The translations under genes and the position numbers were made by a program. DNA of 64,000 nt. It comes from Escherichia coli. Its GTDB lineage: Bacteria; Pseudomonadota; Gammaproteobacteria; Enterobacterales; Enterobacteriaceae. Every line of letters begins with the position of its first letter. Position 1 is the stretch's first letter. Shown in pieces: positions 60,313-61,333 of this stretch. The notes beneath the pieces were generated by a model, which was not told the DNA's origin, ran no database searches, and worked only from the letters and a program-made list of their open reading frames with translations. The DNA lies in the NCBI RefSeq assembly GCF_044324875.1, contig NZ_CP172186.1; one strand, written 5' to 3'.

Positions 60313-60433
60313 AGAATATAATCCGGTATATTACGGGTTACGGTATAAGACAGGTGGCGGGTAACTGGCCTTCAGATGAATATCATTTCATCGGGTTATT
60401 GATGATGAACCTTAAAAATCACAGAGGTGATGC

Positions 60434-60829
60434 ATGATAAAGAAGATGTGGCGTTATTTACGGCAAATTGATAAGTATGAATTGCTGCAGCAGGTGATTT
60501 CAGTACATGAAGTGGAACTGCTCAGGAAAATGATGACAGATTCATTATTAGGGTGCTCAGTAGGATATGTGTTTTCGAAAATACTGAAGATATCCTTTCT
60601 GCGTTTTATTCAGTCTGAGGGGGGATGGGATATTATTACTTACTTTTTGTGGATGCTGGGAATGCTTATTGTCATGGCCGTGCTGTTTATCTGGATGTGC
60701 GCCGCTGTATGCTATGAGCTTCGGATGTATAAAATAAAAACAGGAAGGGAGAACGATATATTATTCTGGGTGTGGATTCTTCTTTTTGATGTCGCGGTTG
60801 TATTTTCGCTGGGTAATGTTATCTGGTGA
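60434..60829 (+). CDS. hypothetical membrane protein (131 aa) in low-GC islet, opposite strand to operon
   Basis: Track ORF; about 3 TM helices; AT-rich codon usage. Confidence 0.4.
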   Translation: MIKKMWRYLRQIDKYELLQQVISVHEVELLRKMMTDSLLGCSVGYVFSKILKISFLRFIQSEGGWDIITYFLWMLGMLIVMAVLFIWMCAAVCYELRMYKIKTGRENDILFWVWILLFDVAVVFSLGNVIW

Positions 60830-61261
60830 TTATGGGTTCAGTGACATATGGAAAAAGATAAGTGCGAACATTGATACTGAAGAATAATATATCCAGGAAT
60901 AGAAAAACATGAATTTCGGAGATGGTTTCTTCTGTCTCCTGTTTTTCAGGGGAGTCTGTGGGTCAAATGTTATCAGCGTCATTAAAGGATACCCTTTCAT
61001 AAGAATAAAAATATAGACGCATAAATGAGCGTAAAGAGGTAACCTGTCCTGCCAGAACAGAATCATCATGATGACGGCAAGATGAAATGTCGTTACATTG
61101 ATATAATAAAACCAGCTGTATTTACGCAGATACTGTTGGATATTCACGCTGTCAGCATGCGGTTCTGGTGAACAATTTATGCAAAAACAGAAGAAAGAAA
61201 TGATGATGAACACGGTCAGAGTGACCGGTAATACAGTCACAAGCAGAAAGAGTATGGACAT
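60830..61261 (-). CDS. hypothetical polytopic membrane protein (143 aa) in low-GC islet
   Basis: Track ORF; about 4 TM helices; convergent and abutting the 60434..60829 ORF. Confidence 0.4.
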   Translation of the reverse strand: MSILFLLVTVLPVTLTVFIIISFFCFCINCSPEPHADSVNIQQYLRKYSWFYYINVTTFHLAVIMMILFWQDRLPLYAHLCVYIFILMKGYPLMTLITFDPQTPLKNRRQKKPSPKFMFFYSWIYYSSVSMFALIFFHMSLNP

Positions 61262-61333
61262 AAAAATATCTCCGTCAGGATAGTGTGATTATTCCTTTAT
61301 GGTTCCATAACCCGGCGTAGCTCCGTCGACTGG

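Follow-up and report, generated by a model that had tools for sequence, protein, structure and literature searches.

The locus considered here raises the question of what a pair of small, convergent open reading frames (ORFs) is doing within the pilus operon of a conjugative plasmid. The locus lies at 60300-61300 of a 64,000-nucleotide stretch of Escherichia coli DNA (contig NZ_CP172186.1, assembly GCF_044324875.1), referred to below as the window, and its two ORFs are called ORF131 and ORF143 after the lengths of their products in amino acids (aa). The pair sits inside the thin-pilus (type IVb) operon, in the gap between pilI and pilL, and is an optional, lineage-restricted two-gene module of IncB/O/K/Z-type plasmids in a hypervariable slot. 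What the module does is a matter of weighing several readings, among which we tentatively favor a cognate pair of inner-membrane proteins.

Over 60300-61350, the window matches pCh101, an E. coli plasmid, at 100% identity and the KR9053xx series of blaCMY-2-bearing IncK2 plasmids at 99.9%. Of the 201 plasmid records that match this region, every one is enterobacterial and 200 are predicted to be conjugative; those whose annotation was read are IncK2/Z, MOBP, and MPF_I. The window is an IncK2/Z plasmid of the I-complex. Resistance genes, blaCMY-2 among them, are spread in poultry and humans by IncK2 and related plasmids of the I-complex, whose thin pilus governs liquid mating and probably gut mating.

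Position and reality of the two genes

ORF131 (60434-60829, plus strand) encodes a membrane protein of about three helices and runs from an ATG to a TGA, and ORF143 (60830-61261, minus strand, i.e., the strand of the operon) encodes a protein with four transmembrane (TM) helices and runs from an ATG to a TAA. Their stop codons touch with zero bases between them, just as a sequence-only reading of the window had described. That reading had placed the pair between the pil operon and its upstream regulators; since pilI (61334-61576, minus strand, 80 aa; PF10623, E = 1.9e-31), the first gene of the operon, lies upstream of the pair, the pair is instead within the operon. A gap of 72 nt separates pilI from ORF143, and the next operon gene after the pair is pilL (59242-60312, minus strand), which encodes a TcpQ-domain lipoprotein and is followed downstream by PilM, PilN, and PilO, likewise on the minus strand. 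The further claim that the plus-strand gene is the only one oriented against the operon holds for about 6 kb on each side, up to repA, with ORF131 the sole gene counter to the pil/tra orientation.

Both ORFs are preceded by good ribosome-binding sites, read from the sequence: a Shine-Dalgarno-like AGAGGTG at 60423-60429 on the plus strand, 5-11 nt 5' of the ORF131 start, and GGAGA at 61269-61273 on the minus strand, 7 nt 5' of the ORF143 start. When the 1-kb region was shuffled with dinucleotide composition preserved (n = 2000), two ORFs of at least 131 aa arose in 0 of the 2000 shuffles and a single one in 25. Because of these ribosome-binding sites and the absence of any shuffle with two such ORFs, we take ORF131 and ORF143 to be real genes, and, as far as sequence can tell, members of two orphan families. 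The RefSeq annotation of the identical plasmid pCh101 lists ORF131 as a hypothetical protein (WP_029391920) and leaves ORF143 unannotated; PilI is likewise absent from the current annotation despite its clear PF10623 match. Current RefSeq annotation thus overlooks one real gene, ORF143, in this slot.

The locus is a low-GC islet, as had been noted, with a guanine-plus-cytosine (GC) content in 300-nt intervals of 0.37-0.40 over 60300-61300, against 0.52-0.62 in pilL and 0.52-0.55 in traC on its flanks. By codon position (GC1/2/3), the values are 0.42/0.29/0.48 for ORF131, 0.35/0.31/0.47 for ORF143, and 0.61/0.58/0.60 for PilL, with a whole-window average of 0.52. The AT excess is therefore mostly one of codon positions 1 and 2, and is owed more to the hydrophobic residues that the two genes encode than to a foreign mutational bias. 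The pilJ/pilK stretch of IncI1 plasmids is similarly AT-rich (GC 0.34-0.39), which makes low GC a property of the pilI-pilL slot across the I-complex. Foreign origin read from low GC alone is not a firm inference here, given a GC3 of 0.47.

Two alleles of the plus-strand protein and a family of four-helix proteins

Hydropathy and the secondary structure of AlphaFold models agree with the earlier claim that both proteins are polytopic, placing helices at residues 24-60, 67-103, and 108-130 of ORF131 and at residues 3-29, 49-71, 76-97, and 115-141 of ORF143. The models themselves are of low confidence, with predicted local distance difference test scores (pLDDT) of 62 for ORF131 and 52 for ORF143.

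A second allele of the plus-strand ORF, 141-146 aa long (the 14x-type), is present in related plasmids and aligns with ORF131 over its full length at 33-37% identity, with 40 invariant columns; the plus ORF is thus conserved as a protein. Residues 17-47 of ORF131 form a basic stretch that is nearly identical in both alleles, and the membrane helices are more diverged. Members of this family are 131-146 aa long and share an N-terminal LLQ.I.S...V.LLR..MTDSLL.CSVG.VF followed by E.G and two strongly hydrophobic helices. Their genes converge on a 4-TM gene next to pilL, and in the loci read the plus-ORF gene is always convergent on the last 4-TM gene, abutting or overlapping it. A profile of the family searched against 5.8 billion proteins returned 50, all from E. 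coli and all belonging to the two allele types or their fragments. ORF131 is thus one form of a membrane protein of about three helices that exists as two deeply diverged alleles.

ORF131 also contains a G6 run (60619-60624, plus strand) at codons 62-64 (E-G-G), at or near which the frameshifted database variants of ORF131 cluster. We considered this run as a phase-variation switch and rejected it, since the run is missing from the other allele and the frameshifts may be assembly errors; homopolymer assembly error and slippage could both produce them.

The ORF143 family gives a different picture, one of units repeated and fused. In a small local database, ORF143 aligned by BLASTP to both halves of a 295-aa ORF found in relatives (ORF295), with residues 1-128 matching at E = 9e-16 and residues 153-282 at E = 1e-10. 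ORF295 thus joins two ORF143-like units in tandem, and ORF143 is the single-unit form of an orphan 4-TM inner-membrane family. The unit is about 145 aa long, and the alignment of ORF143 with the ORF295 units has 18 invariant columns. Shared motifs are LPV.L in helix 1, YL..(Y).WF..N in the loop that leads from helix 1 into helix 2, a basic loop with K..SP ahead of helix 4, and NP at the C terminus. Searched by tblastn against plasmids, ORF143 matched 99 records at 99% identity or more, together with weaker matches of 25-27% identity inside the relatives' 295-aa ORF. A profile of the 4-TM family searched against 1.84 billion representative proteins found 6 matches, all from the same lineage.

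Neither ORF131, nor ORF143, nor the relatives' versions of either matched anything above noise in Pfam, NCBIfam, PADLOC, or PHROGs. A sequence-profile search of PDB at E up to 1 gave no match for either ORF, the best Foldseek hit of the ORF131 model against PDB had an E of 0.95, and comparison of the two families with each other by hhalign showed no relation between them. A full-text literature search, with the primary R64 pil papers outside its range, likewise found no study of ORF131 or ORF143. Three neighboring studies make no mention of these ORFs: a transposon-directed insertion-site sequencing (TraDIS) study of the I-complex, which validated other genes of unknown function and in which liquid mating could not be assayed (PMC10286972); a comparative study of IncK2, whose core includes "several hypothetical genes" given no further detail (PMC12987596); and a transposon-sequencing (Tn-seq) study of pESBL, which from the slot region covers only IncI1 pilK and pilI (PMC4288162).

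A variable slot between pilI and pilL

To place the pair among its relatives, we searched a collection of 72,556 plasmids by tblastn. Each of the two families was found in 149 records, with the same genus breakdown, whereas a PilL that is at least 80% identical to that of the window is present in about 460. Both ORFs matched only records typed as IncK2/Z and none of the roughly 2,000 IncI1-type records.

The contents of the gap vary widely. Many IncB/O/K/Z-type contigs carry pilI, ORF143 (90-92% identity), and ORF295 on one strand with short gaps, then a convergent plus ORF of 127-142 aa that overlaps by 8-11 nt, and then pilL. In some plasmids ORF143 has been lost from the gap; in CP088788 it is a truncated remnant of 79% identity, an identity band that holds 17 records. 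AP024117 has an additional membrane ORF in the gap, sampled plasmids with a 95-96% identical PilL carry a soluble ORF of 106-111 aa in place of the pair, pRM10042-1 has a pseudogene there, and IncI1 plasmids have pilJ and pilK. The pilI-pilL gap is thus a swap site with at least four unrelated gene sets. The sequence-only reading had suspected horizontally acquired cargo, and the accessory and variable character of the pair is borne out by its presence in 149 records as against about 460 with the PilL backbone and by the other ORFs in the relatives' gap; the foreign origin that was deduced from base composition is not, in view of the GC3 value and the equally AT-rich IncI1 slot.

Other cargo occurs over the whole traC-pilL interval, which is a hot spot in IncB/O/K/Z plasmids (loci L003, L004, L007, L009, and L023 of our set) whose contents are uncharacterized. 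They comprise a soluble ORF of 106-115 aa in which the motif PVTCPVCF occurs, a membrane/coiled-coil ORF of 169 aa in the place of pilI, and a set of ORFs of 196, 69, and 121 aa.

Within this slot, the exchange has sharp edges. BLASTN similarity of the window to relatives ends at 60413, 21 nt before the ORF131 start codon, and resumes at 60829/60830, at the stop codon of ORF143; in one relative it extends to 60573, matching the conserved N-terminal part of ORF131. The segment 60414-60828 is thus allele-specific, with about 1.4 kb in the relatives (ORF295 and the 14x-type plus-ORF allele) at the same place, and the break in similarity therefore marks an allelic replacement of that 1.4 kb. The alleles also keep company with particular 4-TM genes. 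The 131-type allele is found in 99 records, a count equal to that of the records in which ORF143 is at least 99% identical; the remaining 50 records have the 14x-type allele, and every such locus read has ORF295, with ORF143 mostly absent or truncated. The association of the 131-type with ORF143 and of the 14x-type with ORF295 fits what would be expected of cognate pairs.

Selection and natural loss

Across the 1041 bp compared with two IncK2 relatives, the window showed five distinct differences, all of them nonsynonymous and all in ORF131 (codons 54, 77, 82, 83, and 87), with zero in ORF143 or the spacers. When relatives and database variants are taken together, 8 of the 11 variable residues of ORF131 fall at residues 77-96, in the second long helix, a concentration that could reflect either diversifying selection or loose constraint on this helix. 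In two independent cases, a natural deletion has taken away 5' sequence of ORF131 and spared ORF143; one takes the start region and the first 26 codons, and the other takes the first 104 codons.

The ratio of nonsynonymous to synonymous substitution rates (dN/dS) is 0.45-0.65 for ORF143, where each comparison counts 4-17 nonsynonymous changes against 2-7 synonymous ones, 0.18-0.48 for ORF295, and 0.13-0.22 for PilL.

Transcription of the pair

The convergent arrangement bears on how the two genes would be expressed. ORF143 would be co-transcribed with pilI from a promoter-like site just upstream of pilI (TTCACA-16-GATATT, 61599-61626, minus strand); in relatives the same promoter-like site precedes pilI, after a terminator-like site that follows a flotillin gene. 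ORF131 would be read from a promoter of its own in the conserved pilL-ORF131 spacer, where our own scan found a candidate consisting of a perfect -10 hexamer, TATAAT, with a poor -35 (60317-60322, plus strand); a promoter-tool scan gave no 9/12 site at this position. There being no intergenic space between ORF131 and ORF143, their transcripts must overlap, and read-through of the operon to pilL would run antisense through ORF131. From overlapping and antisense transcripts it follows that the expression of ORF131 and that of the operon should be reciprocal.

On the plus strand, a terminator-like hairpin with a T-run (60918-60949) lies about 90 nt past the ORF131 stop codon, inside the 3' end of ORF143. 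The predicted RNA fold past this stop codon has a z score of -3.7 on the plus strand and of -1.0, a background value, on the minus strand. The terminator-like structure is thus on the ORF131 strand only, and in relatives a further site of this kind follows the stop codon of the plus ORF at a distance of about 70 nt. As a dedicated terminator, the hairpin itself (60918-60939) was rejected, because it is conserved coding sequence of ORF143 even where ORF143 does not neighbor the plus ORF. A perfect inverted repeat of 13 nt, whose arms (60755-60767 and 60881-60893) lie roughly symmetrically to either side of the gene junction, was taken as incidental, as it has no counterpart across the junction in relatives. 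Rfam detected nothing in 60300-61300.

The upstream regulator TraB (62659-63366, minus strand), separated from pilI by TraC (61853-62620, minus strand), is NusG/RfaH-like. ORF131 is thus a protein-coding gene that lies antisense within an operon under RfaH-like control. No RfaH ops element was found near the pil promoter. Elsewhere in the window, the single perfect match to the ops consensus, GGCGGTAGCCTG, stands at 42598-42609 on the plus strand, antisense to a traF-like ORF, and ops matches with at most one mismatch occur at chance frequency.

Comparison with known systems

The closest counterparts by position are pilJ and pilK of IncI1 plasmids of the R64/ColIb-P9 type, which fill the same pilI-pilL slot, are AT-rich, and encode small membrane proteins: PilJ is about 117 aa long with 2-3 hydrophobic helices, and PilK is 197 aa long with N-terminal hydrophobic helices. 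The resemblance does not extend to sequence. Comparison of the ORF131 and ORF143 families with PilJ and PilK by hhalign gave probabilities of 2.8%, 0.1%, and 0.1%, and BLASTP gave E values above 2, so ORF143, for which the sequence-only reading had wanted exactly this comparison, is not an ordinary homologue of either. Moreover, pilJ and pilK both lie on the operon strand, whereas only ORF143 does so here and ORF131 is on the opposite one; unlike pilJ and pilK, the 4-TM unit occurs in different copy numbers, with a fused form in relatives, and the module is missing from most near-identical pil backbones. As such, the pair is a further, non-homologous version of the known small-membrane-protein theme of this slot. 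In one IncI1 plasmid (p15124679; positions 4011-4283 of locus L006), RefSeq annotates a 90-aa ORF on the strand opposite the operon where an operon-strand ORF for a 117-aa membrane protein, at the R64 pilJ position, is open, and the RefSeq ORF is probably a strand mis-call.

The immunity proteins that go with pore-forming colicins (Cai/Cbi/Iia type) are small and polytopic, with 3-4 TM helices in the inner membrane, and are encoded on enterobacterial plasmids by AT-rich genes that converge on the partner gene. Smallness, AT-richness, polytopy, and convergence are shared by the pair, a likeness used here as a lead only. Unlike colicin immunity genes, the pair has no Pfam or NCBIfam match (no curated colicin immunity-protein model was hit at E up to 1), its neighbors are pilI, pilL, and the other small ORF rather than a colicin or lysis gene, and both partners are membrane proteins. 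Entry or surface exclusion in the I-complex is exerted by ExcA, with TraY as its target, and is a plasmid-encoded, membrane-associated function that differs between subgroups. The IncK2 core includes excA (PMC12987596). Unlike the pair, excA lies elsewhere in the tra region; ExcA and the pair are set side by side by description only.

Possible roles of the pair

The role in exclusion, immunity, or toxicity that had been proposed from the sequence is treated here as a hypothesis. The account that we incline toward, tentatively and at clearly less than an even chance, is that ORF131 and ORF143 would be cognate proteins of the inner membrane, transcribed in opposition, that resemble a toxin/immunity or an exclusion system rather than a core component of pilus assembly. 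We lean this way because of the pairing of the alleles, the boundaries of the exchanged cassette, the copy-number variation and fusion of the 4-TM unit, the fast change of ORF131, and the loss of ORF131 with ORF143 kept. As a guess at mechanism, the operon-encoded 4-TM protein would partner with or neutralize the protein made from the convergent ORF131. Several points weigh against this account. The pairing of alleles could be mere physical linkage of neighboring genes; the dN/dS of ORF143 is indistinguishable from neutrality on this timescale; the promoter and terminator matches that suggest reciprocal expression occur at, or close to, the frequency given by chance; classic small membrane toxins are far smaller than ORF131; no homology to a toxin, immunity, exclusion, or defense family was found (0 families in PADLOC, and none in Pfam, NCBIfam, PHROGs, or PDB); and the structure models are of low confidence, with the fold search of ORF131 giving no result. 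A more elaborate form of the same idea, in which the slot is a diversifying membrane toxin/immunity or self-recognition cassette made of a convergent 3-helix effector (ORF131 or its 14x-type allele) and its cognate 4-TM partner (ORF143 or ORF295), with the effector gene so placed antisense in the pilus operon that effector and pilus exclude each other's expression, strikes us as quite improbable; if true, this exclusivity would tie mating competence to killing, exclusion, or plasmid addiction.

The shared slot with pilJ and pilK, equally AT-rich and likewise filled with small membrane proteins, invites the view that ORF131 and ORF143 are non-homologous functional stand-ins for PilJ and PilK, i.e., inner-membrane factors of thin-pilus assembly or stability, with ORF143 acting with the pilus machine and ORF131 modulating it. 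In its favor, ORF143 shares the strand of the operon and is the next gene after pilI, which has a promoter-like site in front of it, and pilK is reportedly among the twelve genes required for the R64 thin pilus, as described by Yoshida et al. in 1999. Nevertheless, the proteins resemble PilJ and PilK neither in sequence nor in profile, both families are missing from about two-thirds of the plasmids whose PilL is at least 80% identical (those sampled have no membrane protein in the slot at all), and ORF131 is naturally lost, and we consider such a substitution somewhat unlikely. Alternatively, the pair may be hitch-hiking or decaying cargo, young and linked to the transfer backbone, that has no current function. 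The dN/dS of ORF143, the exclusively nonsynonymous differences between ORF131 and its close relatives (including W87R at a residue that is invariant between alleles), the several frameshifted or truncated database variants, the natural deletions, and the remnant of ORF143 in the sampled plasmid of 79% identity, with the other records of that band, would all agree with decay. Yet both families have intact frames in AT-rich, stop-prone DNA, motifs are shared and the helix layout matches at 27-36% identity, ORF295 is under purifying selection, and the two alleles of the plus ORF hardly differ in their N-terminal part, all of which makes a functionless pair unlikely in our judgment. Least probable among these readings is one that would make ORF131 chiefly a cis-acting brake, whose convergent transcription, by collision or base-pairing with the transcript of the pil genes, determines how strongly pilL-pilV are expressed, the protein being secondary. 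Its position on the opposite strand between pilI and pilL with no 3' intergenic space in both allele types, the terminator-like structure solely on its own strand, and an upstream TraB of a kind that would favor operon read-through are consistent with such a brake. However, conservation is at the protein level, with almost no DNA similarity between the alleles beyond the extension seen in the one relative, no promoter on the ORF131 strand reached the scan threshold, and relatives have the same pil operon without ORF131.

Should the pair prove to modulate the expression of the pilus, exclusion, or competition between plasmids, some of the differences between subgroups of the I-complex would be accounted for; should it do nothing measurable, it is ordinary orphan cargo.

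Other features of the window

Upstream of pilI, the window carries the remnant of a flotillin gene (61577-61810), of which 61630-61810 matches the interior of the intact flotillin gene of relatives. In those relatives with intact flotillin, yqiJ (NfeD-like) and flotillin lie between traC and pilI. A 126-aa ORF at 61334-61714 is a C-terminal fragment of flotillin, with a weak match to the Pfam Flot family, fused to pilI.

Further along the operon, two additional ORFs of 184 and 224 aa with no Pfam family lie at 54097-55343 on the minus strand, between pilP and pilQ; in the IncI1 reference locus pilQ comes directly after pilP. The 184-aa product has a hydrophobic C-terminal part. In pCh101, genes of the pilQ and pilR types at 62438-65046 are annotated as frameshifted, and their counterparts in the window (52492-54000 and 51390-52556) are open, a discrepancy that points either to assembly errors in pCh101 or to the window coming from another plasmid.

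At the end of the window, 63839-63988 matches a repZ-type regulatory pseudoknot (Rfam PK-repZ, 167 bits), the replication control region of the I-complex, and the opposite strand of the same interval gives a sub-threshold match to a CopA-like antisense RNA (41.7 bits, against a gathering score of 60).

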